Source: Protoeuglena noctilucae (taxonomy: Eukaryota). From it: a DNA stretch of 64,000 nucleotides. Shown here one piece after another: positions 13,040 to 59,500 of this stretch (position 1 is its first letter; the number at the start of each line of letters is the position of its first letter). Under the pieces are notes generated by a model, which was given only the letters and a program-made list of their open reading frames with translations, was not told the origin of the DNA and ran no database searches. The position numbers were made by a program, and so were the translations under genes. The stretch lies in assembly GCA_958009085.1 (NCBI GenBank), contig OY253668.1, positions 1,736,001-1,800,000 on the forward strand, given 5' to 3'.

Positions 13040-16000
13040 ATGGAGGCCTCGGCCCTCGAGCCTCCCGCCCCCCCGAGCGGGGGACGCACGAGGGCCATCA
13101 GTGCGAGGTCGAACGCGCGGAAGCGGGCCCGCAGGCACTTCAACAAGCCGCTGGCGACGCTCCAGGTCGTCCGCGAGACGACATGGACCCCGCAGGCGAG
13201 GCCGGGGGGGCATGGGCGCTGGCTGTAGTCCTTGGTAGGCTCGCTTGGTCGGTGATGCGATGGCAGCGGCAGACAGCCCTTACGGGCCGGTCCTGGGAGT
13301 TGGCAGCGTGCGCGCATGGGAATGCGACGAGCGCCTTGGAAGTACGCGTGCCGCATCGTCCTTTCTGGATAGGCCAGCGACAAGTCATGCTTGTGTCTGT
13401 CTGCCACTCCCGTCGGGGCAGTTCGGCTCGCTCCAGGGCGCGTGGTTGGGCCGCGGCATGTTCGGGCACACCGCTCCCCGCCCCGCGCCCTCCTCGCAGA
13501 GCGACCTCCTCGTTCCCATCCTGAGCACGTTTAGTGCATTGCGCGTCGAGCAGGCGATGTCGGGGAGCGCCCGGGATGTGGCGCCCGGCAGCCCCAGGCG
13601 CGCTGTGGAGCTCCCGGGCAAGACCGCGAACCCGTACCTGGACGCCTCGCTCATCCGCAAGCCGCGGGGGATTCCGAAATGGATGAAGGAGCTCGGCGTG
13701 CCCGAGGAGACGCAGGAAACGCGGCGCGAGACGGGCGCAGGTGCGACGACGTGCGAGCGACGGGCTTTGCGAGGGGCCCGCGTGGCTCCGTGGAGCGGAG
13801 CCTGGGCTCTTGGACCTGAATATTCATCTTTGCTTTTAGATGCCTCACGCGGAGGCCTCGGTCGGGCGAGTCGGGGCCCAGCGGCGCCCTCACAGCTGTC
13901 GCCGCAGTCCAACTCCGCTTCTCCCGCCGTCCCCGCAGCGCGCGCCCGTTCCGCGGACGCCACGCGATCGGAGGACGGTACCGGAGCGCTGCGTCACCGC
14001 GTGGCCCGGATTCACAGCACGTACGCGCGCAGCATGGCGCCGGCGTCGGCCTCCCAGCGGGCACGCATGGCCCAGGCGCACCTCCTCTCCCACCGCGTCC
14101 CGCGCCCGCCTGCCCCCGCGAACGAGTACCTCGACCCCGCCCCGCGCCCCTCCTGGAACCCCAGCGTCGCCCCCGCCGCGGCGACCTCCGACCCGCCCCG
14201 CCGCGCGCCCCCGAACGCGGCACAGCTGGCCAAGGGACTGTCCCGCCTTAGGGTGGTCCTCAAGCAGGGCACTCCCCGCGAGCAGCGCGACGCCCTCCTC
14301 TCCTTTTTGACCACGGAGCTCCTCGTCTCGTCCCCCGCCGACCGCCTCGTTCTGGCGGAGCTGCTTGAAACGCTGCAGGACCAGAAGCCCGCGCTGCAGG
14401 TGAGACTTTTTGAGGGCGGGGGTGCATGGGATGGGTGCATGAGTGGGTGGGTGCAGGGGTGGGTGCGGGAGCGCTGCAGGTGAGGGCGGGTGTGCGTGGG
14501 TGGGGTGCGTGAGTGGTGCATGGGTGGGTGTCAGGACCACCCTCCACTCCCCGCCTCGCCTCAAACCCACTCATGCACGTCACCACCACCACTCTCCACC
14601 TCATCTCACCCTTGCCCACTCATACCACCCCCCACTCCCTTCTCCGCCCATCCAGGTCACGGCAGCCGGCGTGCTCCTGCAGCCTAACCTGCACTCCTCT
14701 TCCATCAAAGCCCTCTTTTTCTTGCACCCGCAGGTCACGGCTGCCGGCGTGCTCCTTCAGCGCGGCCTGTACTTCTCGGCCATCAAGGCCGTGTTCTCGT
14801 CCCCCGCCGCCATCCGCGCGGTGTTGGAGGAGACGAGGAAGACGCTTGAGATGCACGCAAGGGAGGGGGCGGACGGAGACGCGCCGGGGCTGGCGTGGCA
14901 CTGGTGAGGGGGGGGTTATTGGGGGGGGAGGGTGAGGGGGGGTGTGGGGGTGGTGAGGGGGGTTGGTGGGGGTGGCGGAGATGGCAGGGGTGGTGGGGGT
15001 GGCGAGGGTGGGGAGGGCAAGCAGAGCAAATGGGATTAGCAGCGTTAGCGGGACGTGGCATGGCGACAGTCGCACAATGTGTGGGTGCGAGTGCCATTGC
15101 ATGATTGCAACTGTACCCATCCCCTCTCCCTCCTCCCCCACCCCCAGGGACTCCGCGGACCGTGAGTTGTTCGTGCGTCAGTTCTCGAAGCTCAAGATCA
15201 TCCAGGTCTACCGGCAGATGAGGGACCAGATGGCCGCCATGGGGCCGCAGGGGGACCCGGCCATCGCGCGCATCGAGAGGGAGGTGAGCGTGGATATAAG
15301 GGGTGTGTGATGGGGGTGTGCATCAGGTGACCCGGTCATGACGCGCATGGGGAGGGAAGTGAGGGGTGGGGGTGGTGGTGGTGGTTGGGTGTCCATTGCA
15401 CTGATGTGCAACACCCCTCCTGCAACCCCCCCAGATGCTGCTGAAGGTGGTCAACGATAACACTCATTCCATGTCTCCCTATCAAGTCATTTCCACCCCT
15501 CCCCCCCTCGCAGGTGCTGCTGAAGGTAGTCCACAATCACACTCATTCCATTCATGTCTATCACCCCTCCCCCCCTCGCAGGTGCTGCTCAAAGTGGTGC
15601 ACGACTTTTTGCAGCAGCTGGGCGAGGCTCAGCCGGGGGAGCACGACCAGCATCAGATGGCGGCCACGCTGCTGCAGGCGGCGGCGGGGGCCAGGTCGAC
15701 GCGGCAGGCCGAGAGGGAGAAGCGGAAGAGGAGGCTGGCGGCCTTCATGAAGGCACAGGTGACGATTAGCATAGAACTAGCATATAGATTCAATGCGACG
15801 AGTGGTAGGGGTGATGGAGATGTATGGGTGATGAGTGGCATGGGTGGTAGAGGTGGTGGGGTGGGTGTGGATAGTGGGGAGCAATAGCCTGACCTGTCCT
15901 CACACACCCTACCACTCCCCATCGCAACGGGCACTACCCCACCCCACCCCACCCCACTACACCCTCCCCCCCCAGCGCGACGAGCGCGACCTGGACCGAG

Positions 16001-19000
16001 AGGAGCGCCACCGCCGCGCCGAGGAGCGCAGGCAGGCGCTGCTGGCCCAGTCAGTGGCTGAGCGGCAAGCGAAGGACGACGAACGTCGCAACGCGGCGCA
16101 CCGTCGCCGCTTGGCCGAGGCGCACCGCAGGGTGGCCGCGTTCGAGTCCGAGCGGCAGCGGCAGGTGGAAAAGGAAAAGCAGCGGCTGGCGGCGCGGCGG
16201 CAGATGCTGGAGGCGGAGCTGGGGGCGGTGATGGCGGAGGGGAAATACGAGGAGGCGTTTAAGGCCGCTTACCCCGGGCAGCCCGTGCCTAGGGGCGGGA
16301 GGGAGGGGGATGTGGGGGTTGCGAGGAGTGGGGGGGCGAGGATGGGCCAGGAGGGGGCGGGGAGGGGGCAGGGGCGGTAAGTGCATGGTGTGGGTAGGGC
16401 TGTGGGGCGTGGTATCTATATGAATGGCTCGTGAATGCAAGACTCCCGCGCTTGCTATCCATCGCTTTAGATGCCTTCACCCATCCTCCCCTCACCCGTA
16501 CCTCTCTCACCCTCACCACCCCCACCCTCACCTCACCACCCCCACCCTCTCCCTCACCTCACCACCCCCACCCTCTCCCTCACCCTCACCCCCACCCTCA
16601 CCCTCACCCCCACCCTCGCCACCCCCGCAGCCCCCCCCACGTTTTCCCCCCCGCCCCTCCTCCCCCCGGCCTGCGCCAGCCCAGCCCCGGGGCCGTGGAT
16701 GCGGTGGATGCGATGAGGGGCAAGAGAGAGAGGCGCAAGGTGCAGGAGCTCAGGAACCAGTACTCGACCAAGACGCTCATGGTGAGGGATGGTGGTAGTG
16801 TTATAAGTATAGGCATTGTTGTTGATGGTGGTGTTGTAATGGGGGCTGAGGAACCATGAAGCACTGAACAACAACCCTACTCCTCGCTCCCTCTCACGCA
16901 CCCCCACCCATACGATCCCTCACCATCCACCCAATCACCCCCCCCCCCCCCCCCCCACGCACACAGGCGAAACAAGAGGGCGTGGCGAAGCAGATCCGTG
17001 ACTTGGACAGCCAGATGCGCACGCAAGAGGCGATCATGGCCAAGGAAGCGGCACAATTGGAAAAGGCAGCGGTAGAGGCGGCGGTGGAGGGGAGGAGGCA
17101 GAAGCACGACGTGGCCATGGGGAAGGTGAGGGGTGGGAGATCTGTCTGTGTTGTATGAAATTGTTTTATATTGCATATAATATCCTATCCTATCCTATCC
17201 TATCCTATCCTATCCTATCCTATCCTATCCTATCCTATCCTATCCTATCCTATCCTATCCTATCCTATCCTATCCTATCATATCATATCATTCCATATCA
17301 TATCATCACCCACCCCTATCTCCGCTTCTACCAAATCGCAGTCGGTGGACGATGTTGCTGCCAAGGCCAAGATCCGCGTGCGGCGGGAGGTGGAGAAGGC
17401 GGACAAGCTGCAGGAGCAGTACGATCGAATGAAGGGGGAGAGGGACAGCAAGTTCAACGAATTACAAGCGTTCACGGCCGCGCAGACGTGAGTAGTAGTT
17501 GTTGTGGGGGGGGTATGGGCATGGGTGGTCGCACCACCCGCACCATCCATAGTACATACTACACACCCCGCCCCGCACCACCCATCCCTCTCCGGACATC
17601 AACTGAATTCCTCCCCTCTCCCCACCTCTCACCAACAAATCTGCACCACCCATCCCCCACCCCTCCCATCCCCCACCAGTACCATTCACCCCCCCCCCCC
17701 CCACCCCCCCCCAGCCGCCCCGGCGCCGCCCCCTCCCGCCGCGCCTTCTCAGCCCAGGAAGCCCAGGCCGCCATCACCATCCAAAGACACTTCCGCGGCC
17801 ACCGCGCCAGAGTGCGCGTGTCGGAACTGCGTTTGGCGCGGGCCAGGCGCATGGCCGAGCTGGCGGAGGTGGAGCTGATGGAGGCGAGCGCCTTGAGGAT
17901 ACAGACGGCCTATCGCGGGCACAGGTGAGGGACGGTGATGGGTGGTGTGCATGGGAATGTGATTATTATTATTTATTGGCTGGTAGTGGTGACGTGACGA
18001 TCGCGATCAAGCTGCCGCGCTTAATCTACCTCCCTTAACCCCTCTCCCACCCCTCTCACCCACTCACCACCCCACTTAACTAACCACCCCACGTCCCACC
18101 CCACGTACCACCCCCCCCCCCCCCCCCCAGGGCCCGCAAGGACGTCCGCGTGCGCCGCGCCGTGCGCCACGTGGCAGCAGAGGACGAGAAGCGGGAAGCA
18201 GAACGCAGAAAGGAGAGGGACCGATTGCAGACGGAGGCGGCGGCATTGGACGTGGCCAGCCGGCTCATCAGCGGGGACGTGTCGCCGCGGTGAGATGAAG
18301 GGGGGGGGGGGGCACACATGGGACAAGTGTAATACTGGTATTACTGTTATTACTAATAGTGGTGATTGTGGTTGTGGTGATAGTCTGCTCATCAGCGGGG
18401 ACGTGTCGCCGCGGTCAGATGAGGGAGCGGTGTGGGGGTGGTGGAACACGCTTGGAAATGTCAGTGACGATGATAGCAATAGTAGCAGTAACGACACTGG
18501 AACATAGCACAGCACTCAGCTTCTTGGTGGCTACCTCTCAGCACCCATCTCACCTCACCCATCCCACACCCCCACCCACCCCCCCCCTTCCCCCCCGCAG
18601 CAAGCCCTCCGCGCGCACCAGCGCCCGCCCCGGCAACGAGCGCAGTGGCGCGTCGTTCCCCTCCCCCCGTCTCTCTGCTGAGCCCAGCGCCGCCTCCACC
18701 CGCGCCAGCGCCCGCACCCGCAATGCTGCCGAGGAGGCATTAGACGAGGATCGATACCAGAGAGTCGAGACCGCGATGCGAGACGCGGTGCTGTATCCAC
18801 AGAAATCGCTGGATATCGGCGGGGAACGTGACGCGCAAATGCAACGTGCTATGGCGGAGCTGCTGGGGCCCGTGGGGCAAGGGGGGGGCATGGGGTTGCA
18901 TGGAGTGAGGAATGAGAGGTCTATGGTGTCGATGGGGACAGAGGAGGAGGAGGCGATTGCGGAGGTGAGGGGTGTTGTGAGGTGGGGTGGGGGTGGGTGG

Positions 19001-22000
19001 GTGCGAGGTGGGGGGGTTGTGTGGGGTGGGGTGCAGGTTGGATGGGTGTGTGTGTGCGGGTAAAGTGGGGCAGGATAAGCAGGGAGTAAGCGAGGCAGGG
19101 GCTTGCAACAGCAACAGACCCTCTCGCTATTTACAGCTCCCAACCACCCACAACCCACTTCCCGCCCACATCCCACCCACATCCCACTCACTCACCCACT
19201 TACCCCAGTCCCTCCCTTTGTGTTTCACAGGTGTTGGAGGGCGCCCTGCTGGCCGTGGAGGCCTCTCGCCTATCGGACTTTGCCCCAGAGCCATCTTTGG
19301 GCCACCTCCCCCACCCCACACACCAACACCCACACCCGGACCCGCACCCGCACCCGCACCCGCACTCGGCGTCTTCCCAACAAGAGGCGGCGGCCATGCG
19401 CATCCAGGCGGGTTTCCGAGGTATGCGCGACCGTCAGCAGGTTCAAAGAGTGATTGCGGAGAGGCAGGCCATGGTGGAGGAGCGGCTGAGGCAACTGGAG
19501 GAGGAGGAGGACGCGGCGCATGGGGCGGCGATGAGGATACAGAAGACCTTCCGGGGGCACAAGGTAAGTGAATGGAGAGAGATGTGGTGATTGATGGATT
19601 GATAGTGAGAGAGATGGTGGTGGTGGTGGTGACGTGTGTTTTGTCCCCATCACCCCCCTCACTCGCTTCGAGCTCTCTCCCCCCCAGGACCGCAAGCGTG
19701 TCCGTACTATGCAGCGCCAGCGCAAGGACGCCGCTGCCATGCGTATCCAGGCATCGTACAGGGGTCACCAGGGCAGGAAGGAGGCGGAGATGAGAAGGAG
19801 GGAGAGGGAGGCGGCGGCGGCGAGGGCGGCAGAGGCACAGGCGCGATATGAAGAGGAGGTGAGGGTGGTGATTGTGGTGGGAGTGGTAGTAGTGATGAAG
19901 GAGTGGTAGAGGCGCAGGCACGATATGTAGAAGAGGTGAGAGTGGTGATTGTGGTGGGTCACGGTGATAGACTGAGGGGGTGGGTGACGGTGGTGGGAGT
20001 GAGGATGGTGTAAATGTGAGGTAGTGGGGGAGTGCATCTCACAAGAGCCCCTCCTCGCAACCCCACCACCCCACCATCACCTCACATCACACCTACCCCC
20101 CCCCACCCCCCACCCCCTATAAACCCAGATGGCCCGCGAGCGCCGCGCGAGCGAGATCGAGAGGGAGCTGGCCGAGGACCGAGCCGCGGAGATCTCGAAA
20201 CTGCAAGAAGAGGTGGCGGCCCTGCGCATCCAGTCGGGCTACCGGGGCTGGTCGGGTCGCAAGCGGGCGGAGGAGCGCAAGAGAGAGGTGGAGTCTCAGG
20301 AGCGGGCGGCGCTGCAGATCCAGAAGAGCTACCGGGGTCACCGAGGGAGGAAGCGGGCAGACATGGTGCGGGAGCAGATGAGGAAGATTGAGGTGAGAGT
20401 GGGATGGGGGGGTTGGGGAGAGGTAGGGTGAAGGGGTGGGGTGGGGGGGACGAGGGCTGGGGAGTACGGTGGTGTTAGTGCAAAGCTGTGTTCTTGCCTC
20501 GATTTCGGGATGCATCCTGACGACCCCCACCCCCACTGCCACCCTCACTGCCACCCTCATCACCACCCTCACTGCCACTCGCACTGCCGACCCCGCTGCC
20601 ACCCCCACTGCCACCCTCACCCTCACCACCCACACCACCCTCACTACCTCCCTTCACAGGAGGAGGAGCGCTCGACGGCCGCCCTCCGCATCCAGGCGTC
20701 CTTCCGGGGATTCAAGGCACGAAAGGAGCTGGAGCAGCAGAAGGGGCCCGAGGTAGAGGGAGCTGCGGAGGGGGAGGAGGAGGAGGTGGTCGACGAGTTG
20801 GAGCGGATGAGGCGGGAGCTCGCCAAGGAGAGGGAGAGGATGCAGCAGGTGAGGGAGCTGCACACTCAGGGTAGAAAGGTCCACGAAACCGTGCGTCTCC
20901 GGGCCTGCTTTTTGCTATGATTGGATTTATTAGGTATAATCGCGTGCATTCGGCGGGTTTCCGAAGGCCTCGCGCGCCGGATCGCGTGCAGGTGCTTGCG
21001 GAGAAGCGCCGTCAGCTCGAGTACGCACGGCAGGCGAAGGAGGCCAAAGAAGCGCGGCGGAAGGAGGCTCTTTTAGAACGTCAGGCGTCGGCGCTGGCGG
21101 ACGCGGAGGAGCGGCGCCGGGCGGAGGAGCAGCGGCAGGCCGAGGAGATGGAGAGGGAGAGAGAAGAGATGCAGGCGAGGATGCGGGCCGGGGGACGACG
21201 GACGCGTGGTTGTCGATATCGTAGATGACAGACGCGGCGTCAGAGACCACAGCTTGCTCATTGCGCAGCCACCCCGGCACGTTTGGGTGGTGACATGCCT
21301 GCCCGCGCTTTGCGCGCCCCCGTCCCCCACCACTGACCGCCCCTTAATCCTCTTCCCGCCCCCGCAGCAGCGCATCGCGGCCGAGATGGGCGACCGCAGC
21401 GCCCGCGCCGAGGCGGACGAGGCGTCGGCGAAGGCGACCTCCTTGGAGCGCCTGCGTGCCGACCGCGCTCGCTTGCAGCAGATGCTAGACCAGGAGCGAG
21501 AGGCATTGCAAGAGAGGCTCGAGAGGGAGAGGGAGGAGCTACAGAAGAGGATGGCGGCGGAGGAGGCCGTCGAGGTGAGTCACGTTGGAGGGGTGGGGGT
21601 GCGGTGCGGGCGCGGGTGATGGGTGGGGGTGTGATGGGAGGTGTTGGCAAGCTGGCAAGGACGCGACACACGTCCTTATCCCTCCGTTACCACCCCTTCA
21701 CCCCCTCCTCCCGACCCCCCCAGCGCCAGCGCAAGGAGCAGGAGCGCAAGGCGAGGGCGGACACGGAGATCGAGGCGGCACTGAAGCGGTTCTCCGAACA
21801 GCTGCGGGTCAACCAGGAACATATGTCCATGATGCTGGAGCAGCTGAGCAAGCCACAGGTGAGGGTAGAGAGACATGGGGGGGCATCAAGCAGACAGCTC
21901 GACACTGGTGCATCATGGCGCCCTAGCTCTGGCCTGCTGCTCCATTACTATCCATGTCACCCGTTCTCTTTTACCACGCTTCCTCCACCACCCTATCCCA

Positions 22001-22986
22001 CCCCACCAACCACCACCCCCGCAGGCCGCCGTGGGCGGTGCGGGCCCCCTGGGCTCCATGGCCTTCTCGACCGTGCCCCTTGTCATCGGAGGAGCAGGAT
22101 CCACAGCCCCCAGCGCCGCGTCGTCGCCGGCGAGGCAGGCAGAGGCCCGGCAGGGACCCAAGGGAGCGTCACCGCTTGCTGCAAGCACAACTGCCGCTGC
22201 CACGGGGCGGTCTGCTTTCGCCGGCACATCCTCGCCCGCTGCCACGTCCCCCGCATCCACGACGGCGCCGGTGGCGGGAATGGCAACTGCGGCGCAGAGG
22301 GGACAGGCGGCGCAGCCATCGCGCACACCTGCAGGCGCACTCGCGCCCCCCGAGCCAAGGGGCGGTGCTGGCCCCGCTCCCCCCGTCGACATGGCGGGGC
22401 TGGGGGCCATTCCTGACGACGAGAAGCCGACAGATGAGGAGATCCGGGAGTACGCGACTTACCTCGGCATGGACCCAGGTGACGGTGCGGTCGGGTGGGG
22501 AGATGCATGGCGGTGGGTTCAGTGGGTTGGGTTGGGTGCGGGGCGGTCTGTGCGTGGGCGGCTGTGCCTGGGATCGATCGTTTGGGATTGCCTGCGAATC
22601 GTAGAGCTCTCATTCCCTGCGTCGGAGGGCGCGGGGGGCATTATCGATCACACAGCACTTTGCGCTTGCGCAGCATTCGCGACGTGCTCGACACCCAACC
22701 ACACACTCCCCCAAACACAAACACACACTCCCCTTCCGCAGACGACGACGCGGAGCTCCTGTACATCGCGGAATGGGCGATCATGGCGCCCGTGCCCGAG
22801 GGGTGGACCGAGCACGCCGACGCCGACGGCAACGAGTTTTACTACAACGTGGCCACGGGGGTGTCGACATACGAGCATCCGCTGGACGAGCAGTTCCGGA
22901 GCTATTTCCGGCAGATCAAGGCGCAGAAGATGGGGCAGAGCCTGAGCGACAGCCTCAAGCAGATGGCCGGGCCGGTCGCCGCGTGA
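13040..22986 (+). CDS. Large coiled-coil protein with 8 IQ calmodulin-binding motifs and a C-terminal CEP164-like WW module (~22 exons)
   Basis: IQxxx(F/Y)RG motifs at ~17780, 17898, 19402, 19537, 19746, 20228, 20318 and 20690, plus IQASYRG at ~19746 and IQKTFRG at ~19537 counted within these. C-terminus 'PTDEEIREYATYLGMDP..DAELLYIAEWAIMAPVPEGWTEH..GNEFYYNVATGVSTYEHPLD'. Start exon 13040-13195 (GC donor) is inferred. Confidence 0.75.
17182..17305. repeat. (TATCC)n pentanucleotide microsatellite degrading to (TATCA)n
   Basis: About 19 perfect copies inside intron 17126-17341. Confidence 0.95.
20530..20650. repeat. CACTGCCACCC(T/C) 12-mer minisatellite family (also 27560-27665, 39018-39090, 46733-46810)
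   Basis: The same unit recurs in the 3' half of introns in four unrelated genes. Confidence 0.8.
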
Positions 22987-23301
22987 CGCGCTGAGTTGCG
23001 ACACGTGCTGTTGTGATGGTGTTGTTAGCGAGGTGCCAGTGTTGGCTGTTGGCTGTAGATACTTTTGAAGCGACGAGGTGTTCTCATGTGCGCTGTCACG
23101 GTCTGCCCTGTCCTGGCCCGGCCGTTACGCCAACATACTCCCTCTCCCATGTGACATGTTGGCCCATCTGACCCCACTGCTCCGTGCTTCTTTTCTCTTC
23201 AATCAGCTCACACAGCTCGCTCGCTGTCATTCGCCGCCATCTCCATGCACAGTCGAAGTCCTCCACTGACCCGTTCTCACCAAACACAGCACACGCATTC
23301 A

Positions 23302-25302
23302 TCAATCAGAGTCCTCGGCCTCCAACTCCTCCGGCGAGTAGAGCGGACAGTCAATGACGGGGAGCATCTGCCACTCAACGCGATCCATCACGGGCTTGTA
23401 CAGATTCTGCAACTTGACGACTTCACGGAACTCGGGGACGTAGACGCGGCCCACTCCCGGCGAGACGTACTTGACGAGCGGGCCCCCGAAGACCGCGCCG
23501 AACCTCCTCGCCAAGCACAGGATGCCCTCGCGCGTCGCGCTCGGAAGGAAGAGGGTGGAAAGCCCAGACCCCTTGCACATCTCCGCGACCGAAGGGAGGT
23601 CGCCAACGCACTTCGGGACGGCGTTGGCGCACTTCTCGACTCTGCACAGCTGGTAGACCATCTCCGGCATGAACTGCGACGGGCGGAGGGATAACGGATC
23701 TCGGCTCGAACGTGGGGAGGTGGGGGTTGGGGGGGGGGGAAGGACGGCGCCCTAGGCACGCTGTGAGCCCCTTTGGGTCACCGTCATGTTGACGTCCGTC
23801 ATCGTGCAGTACTTGAGCACGTGGAAGAAGGATTCGTGGGACAAGAGCTCCTCGACCCCCCCGGAGTAGTATACCATGATGCGGGCGAACTCCAACACGT
23901 GGGGGCCCCACAAGTGCCTCTTCAGCATGGCCTTGGCTTCCAGCACCGGGGCGGCACTACGGACATTCCCTCCTCCCCTGGACAGGTAGTCGTTGACGGC
24001 GGCACGCACGGAATCCAAATCGCTTGCCAGGACGAGGAGGAGGGGGACCACCTCGTCCAGCGCCTCCCCCCAGACGTCGATGACAGAGAGTATGCCCTCC
24101 ACCGTCGGGACGTTCGGGGGTCGGCACACGGAGAGCATGGTCGTCAGGCCGACCCCCGACTTGAGCACCCTACGGAGGGCCGCCCCCGAATCCGCCGCGA
24201 AGACGGGGGGCGTCGGCGCGCCGTTGGATGTCGACATGACGCGAGTGAGCGCCCCCTTCCTTTCCAGGGCTTCCATGAGCCGGTCCGTCCCCGCGACGCC
24301 GTGTGCGACGGACCACATCCTCAGGGCCGCGTGCCCGTCCGCGGGGGCGAGGGCCGTGACCTGGTCCGCGACGTCCTCGACGTCCCCCATCGGATTTGTG
24401 AGGAAGTGGAGCAGCATCGACGAGGGGTTCTTCGCCATCACCTCGAGCCTGGACACCTTGCACATGGCGACAATCGCCGCCCACCGTATCCACGCCCCGT
24501 GGGTATGGCCCTCGCCGTGCCCGCCCATGTCCACGTCCTCGACCTCGTCGTTCAGGACGGTCGGGGCCTGGGGCGCCGGCGACATCTCCTTTTCCGCCGA
24601 GTCACGGAGAGCCACGTCCGCCAGCTGAGCCATCCTCGCCTCGCGCTCGCGGTTGAGGTAGAGCTTCCTGATCGACGCCCACGGGAAGTGCTTGTAGCTG
24701 ACGAGGGCTTTATTGCTGGCGAGCGGGACTCCCCCTGCCAGGGCCGTCTGGAGGGCTGCGCGCGGGAGGGGGGGGAGTATTCGGCTCGGCGAGGGCGTGG
24801 TTGTTACGACCGAAAGCGGAGGGGGAGTGGGGGGAAGCTTCGTTGGCAGGCCTAAGAAGCCGTCTGGCGTGGGGGGAGGGTCGGAGGGACGAGTATCACC
24901 ATCGCGGCCGTGCTCGAACTCCGCGATGACCCCCGCAATGACGCCGAGACTCCAGCCGTCCGTCCTCCCCAGCGACTCCAGCAGAGGGACCCATTTACAT
25001 ACTTCCGGGGCTCTCGCGCGGAGGCCTCAGAGGTTCACGCTGGGGGGTACGAGGAGCTCCGGGACGGAGGCGAGGAACTCGGTGTGGGTCATGAACGGAG
25101 CCCGGCTGTTCTTGTCCTCGTTGAGAATGTTGGACGCGAGATGCCCCACGTGGAAGAGGAGAGCCATCTCGGCGGGGTCTCGGGGATCTGCCCATGGCGC
25201 CCCGCCGACTGCCTCGACGCCCGAGGTCAGGAGAGCTTCGCCTATCGCGCGGAGGAGGGAGAGGACTCTCTCCACGCGCGCTCGGAAGTCGGTGGTCGAC
25301 AT
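23302..25302 (-). pseudogene. Orphan 3-exon gene with an in-frame TGA at 25029-25027 (pseudogene, recoding or sequence error)
   Basis: Exons 25302-24900, 24755-23782 and 23673-23302 join in phase. The frame continues 'PPSVNL*GLRARAPEVCKWVPLLESLG'. No recognisable family. Confidence 0.5.
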
Positions 25303-25878
25303 AGTGTTCCCGGAAAGCTGGGCCACCACGGCATCGCACGAACGTGGCCTCTGGTCCGTCTCCCGCCTGCGCTTGCATCAAGCAAGATGGTAGCTGTGAT
25401 GCAACACCAAACCGCACAAGAGCGCCGTCATCCGCGCGCGCTGCGATCACTCCTGGCCCGTGCGCGCACCGGTAGCCCTGGGTTATCGCATCCAGGAAAC
25501 CCATTGGGTCCTCGCCAAACCCACTGCCCAAGATCTTACTATCACAAACCAGAAAAGCGTCCGAGGAAGGCTTTGGGGCTCTGAAAGTCCACAGGCCGTG
25601 TTCGGTGCAAGATCCAGGAAGGAAGCGGTCACAGCGCGACTACAGTGGACTTCGCAGGATCCCGCGGTGTCATTAAGGCCTCAGGGGACGTGGGTGCCGC
25701 CTGGCCTGCTCCAGCCAGTTGCTGACTGCTTGCCGGTCACTGGCAGCGCCCCGGGACGGTCCAGACGTGGCAAACGGGCCCTGCCTGCGATGGCACTGTA
25801 CGCTTCTATCTATCGCGCAGCGGGCGTGGTTCGGAGAAGGCATGGGCGCGCGCCCGCGTGGCTGAGAAGCGAGCTGCG

Positions 25879-37805: not shown

Positions 37806-41676
<3,871 letters not shown>

Positions 41677-41934
41677 GTGGGATGTAGTGTGGAGATATTA
41701 GCGGTATTGTGCTTGCCATGACACTGGAAATGTCACTGAGTGGCTGTAGTGTGCTCGGTGGAAACGCTGCAGGGCGCGTTTTGAATTCAACGCCACCGCA
41801 GCTGTGCCTGACTCAGCCCCTCACTGTCACCCCTTACGCATGTGCCGTCGTCCCCCCACCATCGCAGCTGCCTGACTCAGCCCCACCCTCCCCTGCTATC
41901 GCAATTGCCTCACGCAACCCCTCACTGTCACCCC

Positions 41935-45281: not shown

Positions 45282-47356
45282 ATGGGCGAGGCGACAGCTT
45301 CGCCGGGCTACCGCGCCATCCACGCGGACCGCTGCGGCGGGATGCCGGAAGCTGCGTTGGAGATAGAGCGCGACCTCCTGCGGCGGGAGGTGGGCAGAGA
45401 GACGCCCAGGAGGTCGCGGCGAGGCAGGGAAAGCAGCAGGCGAGCGTGCACTTCCCCCGGCCGGCCGGTTGCCGAAGACCGCCTATTCTCTGGCAACAAC
45501 GATTCATGAGTTCTTGCAGAGCTCGCGAAGCGTCCAGAGACCCATCGCCGCGACCCGGCCCCTTCTCGCGGGAAGTCCGGGAGCACCGTGCCACCCGCAG
45601 CACGCAGCAGGTGCAATTCCGTCACCCATATGCGCATCCAAATCCCGACATCGTTATTGGCAAGCTTTCGCGCGTGGCAGAACGCGGCGTTGCGCAATCA
45701 AGACCTCGTCTGCTGCTCCCTCCACGCAGGCAGCAGCGATGAGGCCGGGGCGGCCGTCGGGCCACGCCGCCTGGACCCTCACTCGCGCGGCCAAGGCGGG
45801 GAATCCGTGGATCGCGGAAAGGGAGATTCGGAAAACCACTCCGCCGCGCGCGGCTGTCACGGTGCCCCCAGCGACGTCCCCCGGCGCAGGGCGGGCGGTG
45901 AGGGGCAGTGAAGCTGGGCCATCTCAGGACGCCCGGCGAAGGGCGGAGGCGCTGCAGCGGCGGGAACTGGAGCGCGGGCGGCGAAGGCGACCGGATGCGC
46001 AGGGTGCGGGTGCGGGTGTGGGTGCAAGTGCGGGTGTTGGCACGTCTGCCCCGACCCAACCCGAGGGCCGCCCGGGTCGGGCGGGCCCTTCCCCCGCCGC
46101 GGAGCGCGTGCGGAAGCTCCGGGAAGCCAACGCGCGCTTGCGGGCGCAGCGGCTAGGCCGGGGTGCCCGCGAAGCAGAGATAGCTATGCCGAGCACAGTG
46201 CACGCCCCCGCCCCTCCCGGCCCCTCCAAGCCCGGCGGGGATTGCGGGTCGCCCGCGCGTATCAGCGGGGCTTGCGCGAGCGCGGACGCGTCGCGAATGA
46301 GCGTGGATGGGGACGGGGAGGAGGGTCGGGTGGAGCGTGATGTGCGCGACGTGCTGAGGAGGGTGGCGGAGCGGTCCGAGCAGGCACTGGCGGGGCTGGG
46401 AGGGGGCGAGAGAGTGGCGCGGGATGCGTGGGGGTCAGGGGAGGGATGGGATGGGGTGAGGGAGGATGTGAGGCTGAGGGCCCAGGCGGATGTGTTGGAG
46501 GGGGCGCTGGCGGAGGTGGAGGCGGGCCGCGTGGCGCTGGTGGTGCGGGAGGAGGAGGCGCGGCTGCTGGAGGAAGTGGCGGTGAGTGGGGGCGGGGCGA
46601 TGCTTGGGGTGTAGCAGGGCGATGCGTGGGGGGGCGCGGTCGTGTGATTCACGGCCCCAGCACTTTTGTTTGACACGAAACGATGCTCTGCTTTCCACAG
46701 TCCTATAGCCCCATTTCCACCTCAACGCGAACCCTCACTGCCACCCTCACTGCCACCCCCACCCCCACCCCCCGCAGTCCCCCTCACCCTCACTGCTACC
46801 CTCACCCCCACCCCACCCCCCGCAGTCCCGCATCCGGTCTGAGCACGCCCGTCTGTTATCAGAGCTGCGTTCCCAGGTGTCTACGTTGCTGGGGGAAAGA
46901 GAGAGTGAGGTGCAGGCGTGTCGTCAGTTCCAGAGGGATTTGCTGGCAGAAGTGGAGACTATACGGGGGATCCTGCAGGTGTTGCAGGTGAGAGTTGGGA
47001 GAAGTGTGGTCTTGTGATGCTGACGTGTTGCAGGTGAGGATGTGGCTAGGCATGGGAGGTGTAATGCAGTGACACCTCACACCTCCCTCCACCCCACCGC
47101 TGCCCAGCACACCCCCACACCTCCCACTCCCCCCCCCTTACAGGTGCGGGAGCAAGAGCTGGTGGTCGCCTACGAGGCAGCGGTGTCGGAGCTGCAATCC
47201 GAGTTCGAATCCCGGCTGTCCACTTTTAAAAGCGAGGCGGAGGCGCAGGCGGCGGCAGAGGTCCACGCGCTGAGGGAGGCGGCGGCGAGGGGGTGGGCGA
47301 GGAGTGGGGCTGCTGCGGGGCGCGGGGTGGTGGCGGTGGGTGCGGGTCTGGGATAG
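45282..47356 (+). CDS. Hypothetical coiled-coil protein; 5' structure uncertain
   Basis: Heptad-rich exons ~45730-46581, 46826-46987 and 47144-47356 with canonical splice sites. Confidence 0.4.
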
Positions 47357-47568: not shown

Positions 47569-49048
47569 TCATGTGAACCCCGCGATGACCACCCCCAGCA
47601 GCACCCCCAGCAGTGCCCCCGCTGCGACCTCCGTGGGGGTGTGGCCGATCACCTCGCGAAGCTTGGAATGGGACCTGGGAGGGGAGAGAGAGGGAGGCAG
47701 CTTGGAATGTGCTCTGAATCACAGATCGCTTGCAGAAACCAGCAAAAGACAAGCTGTTTTTGAATACAAATGAACCATGCACTGCTGCTAACAAAAGTGA
47801 CTTTCCCTGCGCCACGTTCGCTTGCCTGCTGTCCCCCGCATCGTTGCTTTCCAGGAACATCGCAGCTGACGACGACGACCCCGCACCCTGCGATGTGCGA
47901 GTGGAATTGGGCTGAAAGAGGGTGCAGGGCATGCACACACGCATGTTCGTGTGCCACTTGTGCCCCTCACTCAACTTGCAGCTCTATGCAATTCAAGCCC
48001 CTCACCTGCAACCCCGCACTGGCCATGCCCCATGCCCCTCACCTGCAGCCCCATCCTACTCATACCCCATGCCCCTCACCTGCAGCCCCGCGCTGGCCCT
48101 GCCGCCACCCCCCGCCTCCAGATCCATCGCGCCCCTGCCCCGCCCCTCGCCCCCCATCGCACCCGGTGGGTCCCCCGCTAACAACAAGTTAAGAGCAACT
48201 GCGTGACGCCCTGCCTCCCTCCGCACGTGGCATGCGTCATACATGACGATGATGGCGTAGACGGCACACACGGCAAATAAGTCACTGCGGTGGATGAAGA
48301 TGTATAATGAAGATTTTATCGTATGAAAGGCATGATGTTGGCTGGGATGACTGGGTGAGTGACTGAGGGTAAGGCGGGGCGTGCTGTGTGCGGTGGCGGT
48401 GCTTCGTACTAAGGGTAAGCTGTGCCGAGTGTTGACAGTTGACGGTGACAGCAGTACCATCAATAGCCAAGATAGGTAGCGCTAAGCGTGATGGATCGCA
48501 ATGGGGCGATGATGCGCAGGCATTGCCTCGCCTGCCCGGCCCAGAGTTGACCCCCACTGCTGCCAGCACCGCCACCGCAAACGCCGAATGGGAGGAGGGC
48601 ATGCCGCCGCTCTGGGCCACGCGAGCGGGGACGAACTTGCGGTCGATGAGCCTGCGGGAGAGCCGAATGAATGAGAGGTAGCTGAGCTGCACACGTGGTG
48701 GGGAGAGCGGGCACAGCACTGCGCGACGTTCGTGCGCACCAGCCGGTGAAGGGCTTGGCGAGCTGCGCAGCGGCGAAGCCCGCGAGTCCTGCCCATAGCG
48801 CCGAGTTGTGGAACAGGTCGACGAAGCTGTGCTGGTCTGCGGCGCGGTCAGAAGAGTGGGACCGGTCTTGCGCAGCGCAAGGCAGGACGCTCCTCGCAGC
48901 CCGACGCTGCGATGCCGCCACTAGCGCCTTCCTCGTGTTGTTCACAGTGCACCGCAGGAGCTATTCATCCTACGCACCGTTCCAGCCGTGCAGAGCGCGC
49001 ATCACGCTTACGAACCGGTCCCCAGGGCCGTGCCGCCGCTCGCGCCAT
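47569..49048 (-). CDS. DUF212 / acid phosphatase-vanadium haloperoxidase-related (divergent PAP2) protein; start uncertain
   Basis: 'AQLAKPF', 'SGGMPSSHSA', 'IVMYDACHVRREAGRHAVALN', 'LREVIGHTPTEVAAGALLG'. GC donor at 48531. Confidence 0.9.
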
Positions 49049-50835: not shown

Positions 50836-52763
50836 TTACGTGAGGTCATCCCCCTCCACCACGACCGGCTGCGGCGCCCCCGCCGCCCCCGCCGCCGCCG
50901 CCGCCCCTCCCTGCAGCTTGCGCTTGACCCGCACCAGCATCGTGGTCTTCCAGGCATCCAGGCGGGAGAGGGAGTCGTACTCGGACACCACCTGGGGTGG
51001 GTGGGGGGGTGAGGGAGTGATTGTGAGAGGTGTGGGGAGGCTGAGCCACCGCACTCGCCTCTTACCACTACCGCTCTTCATGATAAGAGGTACCATCAGC
51101 AGTAGCATGCACCGCTACTAAACTCTCCACACCATGTGCTGCACCACACACCACAACTGCCCTCATGCTGCACACCCACCCCTCACATGCATCACCCCCA
51201 CACACCCACCCAACCCCCACCCCACCCCAAACCCCCCCCCCACCTGCGTGAACTTGTCCTCGTCCCCCTCCAGGCACGCCGCGAGCAGATCCTCAATGAA
51301 CTTGGCCTCCCGGCTGCCCCCAAACGTGACATCGATGTCGTAGTACGTCTTCATGGCGTCCTGCAGCGTGCTCAGGTCCCCCTGGGCCAGCCGGCACAGC
51401 CCCGCGGCCTGGAGGTATTGCTTGCAGGAGAAGCGCAGGAGGTGGTTCTCGGCAGCCTGCGTGTGGGGAGAGGGGACAGCGAGTGTTGTGACATGTGATG
51501 ACAAGTGGCCTGCATGTATTGCTTGCAGCCTGGGTAGCGAGAGGGTAAGGGTTGGGGCGTGGAGGTCTGTGATCCATCCAACCTCACCCCACCCACTACC
51601 CATCTCCCCACCACCTCTCACCTGCCTCGCCATGTCTTTGTAGATCTGCAATGCATCTGCCATGCATCCATCCATATAACAACAACTCCTCATCATTCAA
51701 TAACTCACCTGCCTGGCCACGTCTTCGTAGATCTGCCATGCATCTATCAACACCACATTCACTACCATCACCCCACCCATCACCTCACCCATCTCCCCAC
51801 CCATCTCACCTGCCTGGCCACGTCTTCGTAGATCTGCGCTGCGTCCAGGTACCTCTCCCCTTCCGCAGAGAACTGAGCCACGCTGAGCATGCACCGGTTG
51901 TAATCGGACTTCTGCTCCTCCCCCTTAAACAGGTCCGCTGCCTGGCGATAGAAGACCTCGGCATTAGCCTTGTCGCCCGCGGTCTCGTAGATCTTTGCAA
52001 TGTCGCTCAGGTGACTGTGAGTGGGGGTGGGGTGGGGGGTGGGGGGGTAGGTGGAGGTGAATGTGAGGGTGGTGGGTGAGTGGGTGGGGTGGAGGTGACT
52101 GTGAGAAAACAAAGGGATTAATCAGTCACCCCTCCCCCATCACAGCCCTCATCTCTCACAACATCACCCATCTCTCGCTCACCGTGCGGCCATGGATATG
52201 CGCCCCATCTCCATGTACAGGTTGGCAGCCATGTGGAAGGCACGCGCCGCCTGCGTCTGGTCCGTCTTCTGGTAACACTTGCCCGCCTCCACCAGCGCGG
52301 ATGCCGCCTCGTGCTTGCTCTGCAGGAGATGAGAGGGGACACAGTCGTACCAACGCGGGTCGCCATACGAACCAACGTGCGATCGGTGGGCACAGATGAC
52401 GAAATGTAATTCATCCATATCCCTCCCCGCGCATGGCAACTACTACTGCCACTCGCCTGCAGCTTGACGTGGCAGTCCGAGAGCTTGCGGAACGTCTCGC
52501 CTGCCTCGTTCCACAGCTTGGCCAGCTTGAACTGGTTCGCGGCCTGCTCGAACATGTCCGCTGCGTCCTCAAACTTGTTCCCGAAGAGGCCCCAGCTGCG
52601 GGGCGAGGAGGCGCGGAGCGTCGTTCGGTTGCCGAGCGGGCGCAGCGAACCTTGCTGCCCCGCGCGCGGTCCGCGCCCCGGCTCCGCTCGCTCACCCGGA
52701 CAGCTTCTTCTCCGCCTTCGCGACGAGCGCGAACGCCTCCTTCCCACCGTCCTTCCCCGCCAT
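50836..52763 (-). CDS. Alpha-soluble NSF attachment protein (alpha-SNAP), 6 exons
   Basis: '[35 protein letters not shown]', '[12 protein letters not shown]', '[20 protein letters not shown]...DDLT*'. Confidence 0.95.
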
Positions 52764-56576: not shown

Positions 56577-59500
56577 ATGGAAGTAGCAGAGCGCGTGCGG
56601 GCATCGGACGACCCGCACCTGATTGAGCGCTTTGAGCACGCCGTGGCGGTCGTTGAGCGAGCGGTGGCGCTCTACGGACTGCAAGGATGCTCCATGTGAG
56701 ATCGTGCGCCGCGCCTTGCTGTCCGCGCGTCGCATAGCCCTGCCTCGGGAACGCACTGTGGAAGCGCTTATTGAACTTGCTCGCCGCTCGCTCGCAGCTC
56801 GTTCAATGGCGGGAAGGACTCCACGGTTCTTCTTCACGTCGTCAGGGCCGCGCTGGCCCTCCACTTCCCCGGTATCGAGGCGCCCTTTGGCGCGAAGGGC
56901 GTCCGGGCTTTCTTCTTCCACCGCGACGATGATTTTCCGGAGGTCATCGACTTCGTGAGAGAGACGAACGAGCAGTACAAGTGCGGCGCGCGACGGAGCG
57001 GCGGCTCGTCGGGGATTCGCACATCTACAGGTCGCAGCTACCTCGCGTCGCCCCTCTTCGCCCCGCAGTGTGTCTATCTGGTCGGTGCGGACCGAGGATT
57101 ACAAGGATGGCATGGTCGGGGTGCTGCGGGAGCTGGCGACCCCCGCGGTGCTCCTCGGGACGCGGCGCGGGGACCCCAACGCGCAGGCGAGGATGTGCAC
57201 GGCCTCGGATAGATCGAAAGGGGCCTGTTTCGATGCGCATGGCCGTGAACTGGTTTCGATGCAAAGCATATTTTGCAAAGAGCCACAGCATTGGGCCAAA
57301 CATGCTACGCTCAGATGCTTTTTGTCATCAATCTGGTTCTGGGTGTCGTCTTTTGCAGGGCCAGGAGCACTTCTCCCCTTCCTCCCCCGAGTGGCCGCCG
57401 TTCATGAGGCGAGCGAGCGACTGTAGAGCGAGCGATGAGTCGTCTCCCCGATGCAAGTGCAAGTGTGCATGAAAGAGAGATTGCTTGCTTACCATGGCAC
57501 ACGCAGGGTCAACCCCATCCTCCATTGGTCGTATGCCGAGGTCTGGTCCTTCCTGCAATCCACCCAAGTGCCGTTCTGGTGATTGCTTGCATCGTCACCA
57601 CACATACTATCACGCCATCTGTGGAATGTCTATTGGTGTTACGCACTGCTCCTTGTCTCGCCACCCATGCCCCAACGAGCACCTCACCCCGCCCCCCACC
57701 CCGCTTACCCCCGCCCAGTTCCCTCTATCGCTCTGGCTACACCAGCCTGGGCCCCACGCACGCCACCATGCCCAACCACGCACTGAGGCAGAAGGACGGC
57801 AGCTACCTGCCCGCATGGCAGCTGGCAGACGGGAGGATGGAGCGGGCGGGCAGGTGAGTGGATTGCGTGTATGGCAGTAATTAGGATGCGGTGTTTGCAG
57901 ATAGTCGCGGTGCTTGTGATGCGATCCCAGCCACCATCGCCCACCCCACCACCCAAACCCCTCACACCAACACCCCCCACCCCCCTCTCCTCCCCCCTCA
58001 GAGCCTCCAAGCTCCACCCCTCCCCCTCCGGCGTCATGGGCCTGACCCGCAGCGCGGCGGCGGTGATTGTGGGCGACGAGGTGCTGGCAGCCAAAGTTAA
58101 AGACGAGAACGGATCCGTGCTGTGCCGATTGCTGCGACAGTTGGGGTGGTCGGTGGGGCGCATGGCAGTGCTGCCGGATGATGTGGAGAGCATTGCTAAA
58201 GAGGTGCAGGGGGCGATGCGTCAGTTCGCGGCCGTGCTGGTGGCGGGGGGCATTGGGCCGACGATGGACGACGTGACGGTGGAGGGGGTGGCGAAGGTGA
58301 GAGGGTGGTGGAAAGGGATAATTGCAACGAAGTGTCGTAATTAACTTACTCTTCTTATATAGTTATCCATAATTACGTGTACATTTTAGCACGTTTTATC
58401 CCCTTCTTCCTTCTACCCACCCCCCAGGCCCTCCACCGCCGCCCCGTGCGTCACCAGGGATTGGAGCGGCGCATGCGGGCGTGGTTTGGGGAATCATGCA
58501 CCGACGCGCATTTGAAGATGTGCGAGGTACCGGATGATGAGACGGTCACATTGCTGGAGGGGGAGGGGGAGGGGGTGGGTGGGGGTGGGGAGAGTGGAGG
58601 TGGGGTGGGTGGTGAGAGTGGGGAGAGTGGGGGGAGTGGGGAGAGTGGGGGTGTGACTAAGAGTGGTGGTGGTGACAGGGGCGGCGGTGGGAGTGGGAAA
58701 GCAGCGGGTGGGGATGAGGGGGTTGCACGGGGTGGCGATGAGGGGCTGGCGGGGCTGGGGGCCGGCGGGGGCGACAGGCGCGGGCCCAGCCCGTTCCCGG
58801 TAGTGCAGGTGATATTTGGTTATAATAACAGCGATAAGGTTCATATTGGTTAATATGTGAAACTATGTAATAATAATAACTATTAATTATTGTACAAGAC
58901 ATAACATGCAATCAAATACAACATTTTATTGTATAATCATCAATATAAATGCTAGTACTTCTTTACACCCCCCAGGTCCGCAACGTGTTCCTCCTCCCCG
59001 GCGTCCCCCACCTGCTGTCGCGCAAGCTGCCTGTTGTAAAGTCGGCATTGCTAGCCATGGACGCCCATGCGCCGCTGCAGCCTTTCCAGAGCACGTTGCT
59101 GCGGCTGAGGGAGGGGGACGAGACGAGGGTGGCGCCCGCACTGAGGGAGGCGCAGGAAGCGGCGGGTGAGTATGGGTGGTGGTGGAGGGGTGGTGGTTGA
59201 TGATGCATTTGTATATGTATACTATAATTTATATGCATGCTATGTTTGGTGTCTGCGGTGGGTCTGTGAGGGTGGCATTTGCACTGAGGGAGGCGCAGGA
59301 AGCGGCGGGTGGGGGGGGGGGGGGGGATAGGGGTGAGGGCGTGATGGTCTGCGATTTGCGGGGATTTCAAAGCACACATGTCTGGAATTGATATATAAGA
59401 TGAGTAAAGATGATTTATGATAAAGGAAGATAGTTTTGTATGCAATGCCAGACACCACCACCACACCTCTCCCGATCCCTCTCCCCCACCCCCAGGCTGC

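Follow-up and report, generated by a model that had tools for sequence, protein, structure and literature searches.

The window is a 64-kb stretch of DNA from one GC-rich marine alga with short introns (~120-250 nt). Seventy curated introns were tested, in gene models that were built in this analysis and are in part unverified. The first-pass annotation had listed 19 pairs or triplets in which the edge of an exon reappears inside the neighbouring intron (hereafter, echoes). All 19 are present, where it had placed them or a few nucleotides off, and are given below together with repeats outside that list. Scores are those of the exon edge against its own intron versus the control introns.

14390-14530, plus strand: donor echo, period 80 (70 further in), with ~10 exon nt in the unit; real donor 14400, echo donor 14480; exon end placed by the orthologue P0121
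14653-14790, plus strand: acceptor echo, period 78, with ~60 exon nt; real exon start 14734, echo acceptor 14656; self-BLAST match of 60 nt at 82%; score 25 versus 9
15254-15363, plus strand: donor echo, period 75; real donor 15284, weakened echo donor 15359 (donor score 8.6 versus 5.7); score 17 versus 10
15412-15602, plus strand: three-copy acceptor echo with periods of 79 and 68; exon start at 15582 and echo acceptors at 15514 and 15435
18263-18436, plus strand: donor echo, period 124; 27 exon nt identical, 36 nt at 97%; echo donor mutated from GTGAG to GTCAG; intron part not above controls; score 33 versus 11
18962-19048, plus strand: 44-nt unit in two copies (TRF), missing from the first-pass list; the unit begins 3 nt upstream of the donor of the RNA-confirmed intron 18965-19230
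19828-19958, plus strand: donor echo, period 77; real donor 19859, intact echo donor 19936; 51 nt at 90%, whole unit similar
30103-30249, plus strand: donor echo in a GC-AG intron, period 103; echo and real donors score alike; intron part not above controls; score 27 versus 10
30500-30668, plus strand: period 127, with the final 40 exon nt echoed up to the junction and no donor in the copy; score 32 versus 15
30932-31076, plus strand: weak echo, period 112, of a stretch within the exon whose end lies 16 nt upstream of the donor; 33 nt at 85%, copy without a splice site; score 13 versus 12
32593-32768, plus strand: weak echo of an exon stretch ~20 nt upstream of the GC donor 32646, period 144; RNA joint from 32643 to 32825; score 13 versus 9
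33824-34063, minus strand: acceptor echo, period 120; whole unit similar (90/129 match); last exon of the Omp85-family gene begins at 33859; score 30 versus 10
35703-35980, minus strand: donor echo in two to three copies, periods 121 and 140 (TRF period 121); real donor 35944, echo donor 35823; 44 nt at 98%, whole unit similar; score 39 versus 10
39560-39645, plus strand: donor echo, period 63; same donor word at 39573 and 39636; score 20 versus 11
39772-39938, plus strand: acceptor echo, period 110; real exon start 39904, echo acceptor 39796; 59 nt at 90%; FAD_binding_3 begins at residue 1 of exon 39904; score 37 versus 9
41805-41948, minus strand: direct repeat, period 101 (plus 64), outside the first-pass list; probably a donor echo, as a candidate at a putative junction of a BRO1-like gene
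46763-46829, plus strand: weak acceptor echo, period 48, mainly a C-rich tract and CAG; score 16 versus 9
46978-47048, plus strand: weak donor echo, period 47; score 14 versus 12
47997-48103, minus strand: 37-nt unit in three copies; donors 48079, 48042 and 48005, all with the identical site CAG/GTGAGG
51598-51837, minus strand: three-copy donor echo of the alpha-SNAP gene with periods of 101 and 87; every donor intact (51809, 51708 and 51621) and 33 nt of exon identical; score 33 versus 10
59125-59311, plus strand: donor echo, period 143; real donor 59166, weakened echo donor 59309; 44 nt at 91%; score 32 versus 10

The junctions of 13 of the 19 claims are placed by RNA contigs, an orthologue protein or Pfam profile continuity. 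The other six, the loci at 46763-46829 and 46978-47048 among them, are placed by the gene model alone, and in three of these six the neighbouring exon is Pfam-supported. Pfam profiles are continuous across five echo-bearing introns. RIBIOP_C positions 108 and 110 flank the intron 30540-30722, and positions 189 and 196 flank 30980-31179; the introns at 33824-34063 and 51598-51837 lie between Omp85 positions 289 and 292 and SNAP positions 184 and 186, respectively, and the one at 35703-35980 between the end of POTRA and the start of Omp85. The pairs annotated as 33820/33941 and 35938/35818 are real echoes, with the correction that they belong to a minus-strand Omp85-family gene. Likewise, the three copies annotated as 48071/48035/47997 exist, and the DUF212 profile backs the exon end at donor 48079 in the gene model only partly.

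Alignment to control introns and independent DNA

Each junction query, formed by the last 45 exon nt and 12 intron nt, was aligned to its own intron and to the 69 other introns, which gave 9,660 cross-intron comparisons with a maximum score of 16. All 19 claimed edges matched their own intron above all 69 controls. Throughout the 70 introns, the score exceeded that of every control at 14 donors and 8 acceptors, with about one of each expected by chance. These donors are exactly the 14 of the first-pass annotation, and the acceptors are its five plus three weak ones (introns 20849-20991, 51457-51809 and 52015-52182). Overall, ~14 of the 70 introns, about one in five, are affected. The strong echoes divide into 10 donor and 4 acceptor cases, a split that is not significant, and at a score of at least 14 the orientation was direct in 15 and inverted in none.

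Chance similarity in low-complexity, skewed introns has to be considered here, since these introns are rich in repeats and five of the 19 claims are weak (14391, 30930, 32591, 46978 and 46817), with scores of 13-16 in a range where controls also occur (at least 14 in 8 of the 9,660). However, the remaining 14 score between 17 and 39, and none of the control comparisons reached 17. Moreover, an unbiased self-BLAST returned 19 high-complexity direct repeats with a score of at least 18 at offsets of 25-200, against 0.07 predicted from far offsets.

An assembly artefact is opposed by marine metagenome DNA. The X5 contigs, in which rare variants are dropped, hold the echoes and cover 14985-15927, 18995-20435, 29276-31129 and 31190-33287 with 0-2 differences. 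The first of these contains 15412-15602 with 0 differences, the second the site at 19828-19958 and the third that at 30103-30249. At least seven echoes are unchanged in independent metagenome DNA contigs; relatives were also sought among metagenome contigs and none was found. The splice-junction echoes are therefore genuine, and the strong cases are neither chance nor assembly artefact, an explanation whose probability is practically nil for the set as a whole. For the weak single echoes at 30932, 32593, 46763 and 46978, chance is a possible reading.

Structure of the repeated units and their introns

The duplicated unit spans 37-145 nt, is direct and adjacent, with copies offset by exactly one unit, and straddles a splice site. 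The first-pass annotation had inferred a recurrent process of short duplication, and this agrees with copies in direct orientation only, expansion to three copies at four loci and repetition of the whole unit in at least seven events. Among ten donor events, whole-unit similarity relative to controls is clear in three (14400, with Y versus Y' above all 126 controls, 19859 and 35944), marginal in one and absent in six (18290, 30135, 30540, 39573, 51809 and 59166). In those six the similarity stops at the junction patch, whose exon part is 88-100% identical. Whole-unit similarity is also clear at the acceptor or multi-copy events 15412, 33824, 39772 and 47997.

Most echoes include the splice site, as had been noted, and those at 30628, 31044 and 32737 are copies without one. 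Measured against the real site, ten of the 16 donor echo copies are at most 1 unit lower in score, three are weakened and three are lost, whereas the AG is kept in all six acceptor echoes. Hence the proposed supply of cryptic splice sites is supported. So is the lengthening of introns: the median length is 268 nt with echoes and 182.5 nt in the rest (Mann-Whitney p = 1.6e-4), and falls to 161.5 nt when the units are subtracted from the echo introns. Echo units make up 1,640 of the 13,557 intron nt.

On the other hand, the idea that the process is centred on splice junctions was not supported in that form. In 11 donors the exon part measures 10-41 nt at any period, with x/d below 0.5 in 10 of the 11 and a mean of 0.37 (Kolmogorov-Smirnov test against uniform, p = 0.016). 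Centring is not needed either, because geometry alone makes most tolerated duplications span a junction: the expected share rises from 0.22 at d = 37 through 0.62 at d = 77 to 0.92 at d = 143, and since the introns are short, 51-92% of tolerated duplications of at least 63 nt necessarily cross a boundary. Furthermore, tandem repeats fill the introns in general. TRF coverage is 15.1% of bases in introns, 4.3% in exons and 3.1% in putative intergenic DNA, a roughly five-fold density in introns over the latter.

Seven of the 23 echo units have a period divisible by 3, and among exon-internal repeats it is five of six (144, 144, 90, 87 and 108, the exception being 158). The intron-internal repeats found were all of short period (5-54 nt); no internal duplication with a period of at least 60 nt was seen, where ~4 in 15 were expected and detection in low-complexity intron DNA is poor. 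A 12-nt satellite common to the introns is distinct from the echoes. In ~14 kb of putative intergenic or UTR DNA no strong duplication was found; by a rough hand estimate this absence has p ~0.002-0.005 at equal per-base rates, with a two-fold detection advantage allowed for junctions.

Origin of the echoes

The reading we favour, at a probability of about 0.65, is that the echoes are the remains of small local head-to-tail duplications whose unit held an exon-intron boundary. The unit may have been smaller at birth than it is today, and slippage, unequal exchange or fill-in repair of staggered breaks could have produced it. After a donor-side event the original upstream donor would keep joining the exons correctly, and after an acceptor-side event the downstream acceptor would do the same. 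Since the outer site would still yield normal mRNA, the inner copy would be neutral intron DNA, turning into intron sequence and then decaying, while equivalent duplications within exons would be purged unless in frame. In RNA contigs, which hide rare isoforms, the outer donor is used at 19859 (intron 19859-20128, upstream donor joined in X7 and X8) and at 32646, and most echo sites are presumably silent. Introns would be the main site where tandem repeats arise or persist and, being short and repeat-prone, would let a large share of the surviving duplications overlap a splice junction. Being copied from a conserved, high-complexity parent, the exon-derived part would remain recognisable. The outcome is longer introns, with a store of splice sites that are intact and presumably silent.

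A single full-unit duplication that simply aged would leave the reverse of what the six patch-only donor events show, in which the intron part is at control level, so these count against full-unit duplication. The short exon parts in 10 of 11 donors and the lack of strong intergenic and of long internal duplications also speak against our reading. The echoes could instead reflect the insertion of low-complexity filler with a 36-65 nt target duplication, through staggered-break repair with fill-in, so that the copies bracket a foreign or newly made insert and not two full tandem units. The spacers are rich in repeats and, in the six events, unlike the sequence after the echo, and adjacent single-strand breaks were reportedly found by Schiml and colleagues in 2016 to yield tandem duplications in plants. 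However, this explanation is quite unlikely: it does not predict the whole-unit similarity seen in at least seven events, three-copy arrays would require repeated events at one site, and no intron has a duplication bracketing it from end to end. The same picture would arise if a small tandem duplication were followed by the growth of repeats between its copies.

A mutational process directed at introns or at the region around splice junctions, with more duplications per base there than elsewhere, is rather unlikely, although it would account for ~15 junction loci beside ~14 kb of putative intergenic DNA that has no strong duplication, for the dense intronic repeats and for an exon-side breakpoint that stays at 10-41 nt from the donor for every period. 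A candidate would be breakage or paired nicks tied to transcription, R-loops or G-quadruplexes in the 5' flank of the intron, which is G-rich; the 5' halves have a GC skew of +0.37 in 69 of 70 introns, and the strong echoes lean to the donor side. Nevertheless, that lean is not significant, and acceptor echoes also occur, in the C-rich half. In a compact genome, intergenic DNA may be under constraint, and a conserved exon parent prolongs the detectability of junction events. The comparison is based on one 64-kb window with our own gene models, and R-loops and breaks are hypothetical here.

Selection might have retained the echoes for a function, be it as spare or alternative splice sites, as decoys or as intronic enhancers built from exon-end sequence, but such retention seems very improbable. 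It would fit the good scores of many echo sites, the better preservation of the exon-derived patch than of the rest of the unit in six donor events, and the open, in-frame echoes at 14656-14733 (78 nt) and 15435-15581 (147 nt). Yet the orthologue has a single copy at both the 14734 and 15582 junctions and does not contain the in-frame echo peptides, periods show no excess of multiples of 3, and sites are lost or weakened in six echoes. At 19859 only the outer donor appears in RNA contigs, and good preservation is explained by young age or by gene conversion from the exon copy.

Comparison with known systems

Introners and other introns derived from transposons bring sequence into genes that is then spliced out. 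The echoes resemble them in that the gained sequence is spliced out and in the direct repeats at or near splice sites. Unlike introners, each echo matches its own neighbouring exon only, and a dispersed element family was rejected, as echo queries reached no more than 16 in the other 69 introns.

Adjacent-break duplications like those mentioned above are a possible source of direct copies of tens to ~100 bases, sometimes with filler between them. That work is said to draw no link to splice junctions, and as a source here it is hypothetical. Internal gene duplications were reportedly treated by Gao and Lynch in 2009.

In the Rogers model, taken up by Hellsten et al. 2011, an intron is gained through the tandem duplication of an exonic AGGT segment, as outlined in the part of a review that deals with it (PMC3443670). 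As in that outline, a small tandem duplication within a gene copies splice signals here and is tolerated since splicing restores the message. In contrast, existing introns grow and no new intron is made. No intron was seen whose length equals the repeat period and whose ends copy both flanking exons, no strong direct repeat lies at an offset equal to intron length among matches up to offset 450, and the shiftable overlap at 12 RNA joints is 1-7 nt. With these results and no end-to-end bracketing, there is no sign of intron birth in the window, which goes against the AGGT-segment model here.

Minisatellites whose first unit lies across an exon-intron boundary are described in human F7 intron 7 (37-bp unit), in the interferon-inducible gene 6-16 and in CBS, and in F7 splicing uses the furthest upstream donor alone, according to the relevant portion of PMC1557585. 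Like the F7 type as presented there, the repeats of this window are direct and head-to-tail, begin in the exon with the boundary in the first unit, and repeat the exact donor sequence or splice-site consensus within the intron. The locus at 47997-48103, with its 37-nt unit and three identical donors, is a close parallel. The differences from the cases in that portion are that most echoes here have two to three decayed copies, that units extend to 145 nt, that acceptor-side cases occur too, and that ~14 of 70 introns are involved instead of single loci. This kind of event is already known, and its density in the window is unusual.

Gene models and general features of the introns

The window is densely filled with introns, its GC fraction is 0.52-0.69 per 2 kb, and it carries two runs of N (36112-36311 and 60084-60283). 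The closest homologue of one conserved exon shows 55% identity. The window is represented in marine metagenome DNA runs, in metatranscriptome runs and in runs assigned by label to a single organism. Within 14300-34299, among the matches listed, at least 12 clean introns are defined by RNA contigs that come from two metatranscriptome runs of the same study, while the RNA joints within 14300-18900 lie mostly outside those matches. The RNA-supported introns are GT-AG in 10 cases and GC-AG in 2. GC-AG introns are common in the window (for example 21175-21367, 32646-32826 and 30135-30359), and among 75 predicted donors 22% carry C at position +2. By comparison, GC donors make up about 60% in a haptophyte (PMC4028052), and the introns of pelagophytes are few (bioRxiv 10.1101/2024.10.30.620910); neither group matches the window well.

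Gene models were produced by our own small hidden-Markov gene finder with strand competition. Of the 12 RNA introns, which had also seeded its training, it recovered 11. The models were curated with the RNA joints, with the orthologous protein P0121 (1,639 residues, 71% identity over the compared stretch), which maps along 13512-22983, and with the continuity of Pfam profiles across introns. The curated set comprises 70 introns in 13 genes.

Introns flanked by continuous Pfam profiles
30540-30722: flanked by RIBIOP_C profile positions 108 and 110
30980-31179: flanked by RIBIOP_C profile positions 189 and 196
33860-34145: flanked by Omp85 profile positions 289 and 292
35603-35944: flanked by the end of POTRA and the start of Omp85
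51457-51809: flanked by SNAP profile positions 184 and 186

Regarding the reliability of these models, the predicted 1-kb exon at 28602-29648 of the Bms1/Tsr1-like gene is an acidic, G-rich low-complexity stretch with satellite arrays and may be partly intron, so the model is doubtful there. The DUF212 profile in exon 47888-48283 (-) covers the first 35 residues only and resumes in exon 47569-47673; due to this patchy coverage, the stretch with three tandem donors may represent either a loop specific to the lineage or an intron that was modelled wrongly.

Concerning composition, 69 of the 70 curated introns are rich in G in their first half and rich in C in their second (mean GC skew +0.37 and -0.43, respectively), as in 14400-14733 and 19859-20128. 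In predicted folds the two halves pair with each other (median 57% of pairs), and these folds are modestly more stable than those of shuffled sequences (median z -1.95). Moreover, introns of several unrelated genes share a 12-nt satellite, which occurs as CCACCCTCACTG and as the reverse complement of this sequence, and an intron of the IQ/WW gene holds, at 17181-17289, a near-perfect (TATCC) microsatellite about 22 units long. In the marine metagenome DNA run, summed contig depth rises to 250-13,000 in the bins 28307-28973, 16301-16967, 20303-20969 and 33000-33640, an indication that intron satellites of both forms, G-rich and C-rich, are common to many genomes or loci in the sample.

Locations of the 12-nt satellite
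20527-20653, 27554-27664, 39019-39092, 46731-46771: C-rich form, intron 3' halves
29017-29044, 40058-40160: G-rich form, intron 5' halves; contains donor-like GTGAG

Copies of exon edges inside the adjoining introns

Echoes of splice junctions, that is, decayed direct copies of an exon edge, usually with its splice site, inside the adjoining intron, were confirmed in the window. Every exon edge, taken as 45 exon nt and 12 intron nt, was compared by alignment with the intron it borders and with each of the other 69. Over the 70 introns, the own intron gave a better match than any control for 14 donors and 8 acceptors; of these, 10 and 4, respectively, scored 17-39, and none of the 9,660 control comparisons reached 17. 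The first-pass annotation had listed 19 echoes (14 donor, 5 acceptor) in eight genes, and all of them are among the winners of this test. However, only 14 of these are strong, the other five being weak, with scores of 13-16. The eight genes encode an IQ/WW protein, a Bms1/Tsr1-like protein, an Omp85-family protein, an FAD monooxygenase, a coiled-coil protein, a DUF212 protein, alpha-SNAP and an FAD-synthase-like protein. Profile continuity also upheld the reading of 33820/33941 and 35938/35818 as an acceptor and a donor echo, respectively, of the minus-strand Omp85-family gene. In total, 14 of the 70 introns carry a strong echo or one listed in that annotation.

An unbiased self-BLAST at offsets of 25-200 gave 19 high-complexity direct repeats with a score of at least 18, against a background of 4 at offsets 1,000-10,999, equivalent to 0.07 per equal span. 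No reverse-complement copies reached a score of 14, versus 15 direct ones. Tandem Repeats Finder (TRF) misses most echoes, its rows with a period of at least 25 showing just 35759-35980 and 47997-48103, plus 18962-19048.

Furthermore, marine metagenome DNA contigs span the echoes at 15254-15602, 19828-19958, 30103-31076 and 32593-32768 with 0-2 differences, and contigs of the sequencing run X13, of low depth, are identical to the window. An exact 33-nt echo core had no match in the metagenome contigs, and a search for related loci with the alpha-SNAP exon found none with a query that contained about 28 intron-derived residues. In intron 19859-20128 the RNA contigs use the upstream donor, and the echo donor at 19936 stays intronic. 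P0121 has a single peptide copy at junctions 14734 and 15582, which indicates that the echoes there are additions.

The echo copies lie next to each other in direct orientation, and their periods range from 37 to 145 nt. Three copies are present at four loci (15412-15602, 35703-35980, 47997-48103 and 51598-51837), and at least seven events duplicate the complete unit, including its intron part. Of the 16 donor echo copies, 10 have a donor score within one unit of that of the real site, three have a weakened site and three have lost it; all six acceptor echoes retain AG and a good tract. Only 7 of 23 echo units have a period divisible by three. On the other hand, exon-internal repeats (periods 144, 144, 90, 87, 108 and 158) are in frame in five of six cases, as predicted by selection against frame-breaking duplications. 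The 144-nt repeat at 8724-9420 (-) was rejected as an echo, being a coding repeat of 48 residues in 3-4 copies within a long open exon. The acceptor echoes at 14656-14733 (78 nt) and 15435-15581 (147 nt) are open, in frame and absent from P0121; use of the upstream acceptor at 14656 or 15435 would add 26 or 49 residues, respectively, with the frame intact.

Intron growth and the origin of the units

The proposal that these duplications lengthen introns was supported: echo-bearing introns have a median of 268 nt, versus 182.5 nt for the others (Mann-Whitney p = 1.6e-4), and without the echo units their median drops to 161.5 nt. Together, these units account for 1,640 of 13,557 intron nt (68 introns in this calculation). 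What is seen is growth and not birth, since among the self-BLAST hits up to offset 450 no intron has a strong direct repeat whose period matches the length of the intron, and RNA joints can be shifted over just 1-7 nt of overlap. Intron birth of the Rogers type was rejected on these same grounds, and introners were rejected because none of the cross-intron comparisons reached 17.

The units had also been described as centred on splice junctions, which was not borne out. Across the 11 donor events the exon part always measures 10-41 nt, irrespective of the period, and its mean share of the period over 15 events is 0.37 (Kolmogorov-Smirnov against uniform, p = 0.016). A geometry calculation with ancestral intron lengths, in which a working outer splice site was required, gave the share of tolerated intragenic duplications that are forced across a boundary as 0.22, 0.62 and 0.92 for periods of 37, 77 and 143. 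Repeats lying wholly within introns all have short periods (5-54 nt), in agreement with this rise. Moreover, TRF repeats occupy 15.1% of the bases in introns, 4.3% in exons and 3.1% in putative intergenic/UTR DNA (7.6%, 1.2% and 0.8% for periods of at least 25). This excess throughout introns indicates that whole introns, rather than junctions, are where repeats arise or persist, the echoes being the subset that overlaps an exon edge. A targeting mechanism is therefore unnecessary for most of the pattern, and the most likely mechanism is ordinary local duplication, filtered by selection and visible owing to the short introns.

Some features are left unexplained by plain duplication. In 6 of 10 donor events the intron part of the unit is no closer to the sequence after the echo than to other introns, and the exon-plus-donor patch is 88-100% identical. 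The spacer, which is rich in repeats, may have turned over quickly or grown later, or gene conversion may have acted from the conserved exon copy. Insertion of a filler with a long target duplication could also produce this pattern, but the events with whole-unit similarity (at least seven) argue against it as a general rule. In addition, no strong duplication occurs in about 14 kb of putative intergenic/UTR DNA of the window, which under equal rates has p ~0.002-0.005 by a rough hand estimate (junction target of about 11 kb, two-fold detection advantage). Either constraint acting on the compact intergenic DNA or a mutational bias linked to introns could account for this absence. The exon part, which is short in every case, could stem from selection against echoes too similar to the real exon end or from a defined breakpoint. 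Taken together, the two features point tentatively to an intron-associated bias in mutation.

Junction targeting as such is an unproven possibility. In a stronger form the duplications would be coupled to transcription or splicing and would arise from staggered nicks or breaks, between a point about 30 nt within the exon and a point 15-100 nt deep in the 5' part of the intron, where the G skew is strong; they would be the main route of intron growth, and perhaps of intron origin, in this and other marine protists, with runs of two or three equally good sites silenced by a strict outermost-site rule. This whole scheme is considered unlikely, and ordinary local duplication under selection is preferred.

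Significance and known systems

If the density found here holds genome-wide, such units would represent a concrete and readable way of lengthening introns, contributing about 12% of the intron DNA of the curated genes, and a steady supply of cryptic or alternative splice sites, possibly with intron sliding. Furthermore, the many loci where two or three identical donors, or acceptors, naturally stand in tandem would make it possible to test on the scale of a genome how the spliceosome selects one site among equals. So far this choice has been studied mainly in the F7 minisatellite, a human repeat whose first unit spans an exon-intron boundary, and in artificial constructs.

Tandem duplication is an accepted route to new introns (PMC3443670), and the form of intron gain presented there is absent here. 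No description of junction echoes at such density, on both donor and acceptor sides, was found for any organism in an incomplete literature collection, where the only direct parallel was an F7 paper (PMC1557585). The nearest known cases are human F7 intron 7 (37-bp unit), 6-16 and CBS, where the first unit of a minisatellite spans the exon-intron boundary; in F7 the identical pseudo-donors are silent and the most upstream site is chosen. The kind of feature is already known, and the density (14/70 introns) together with the unexplained points sets the echoes of this window apart as a variant of it.
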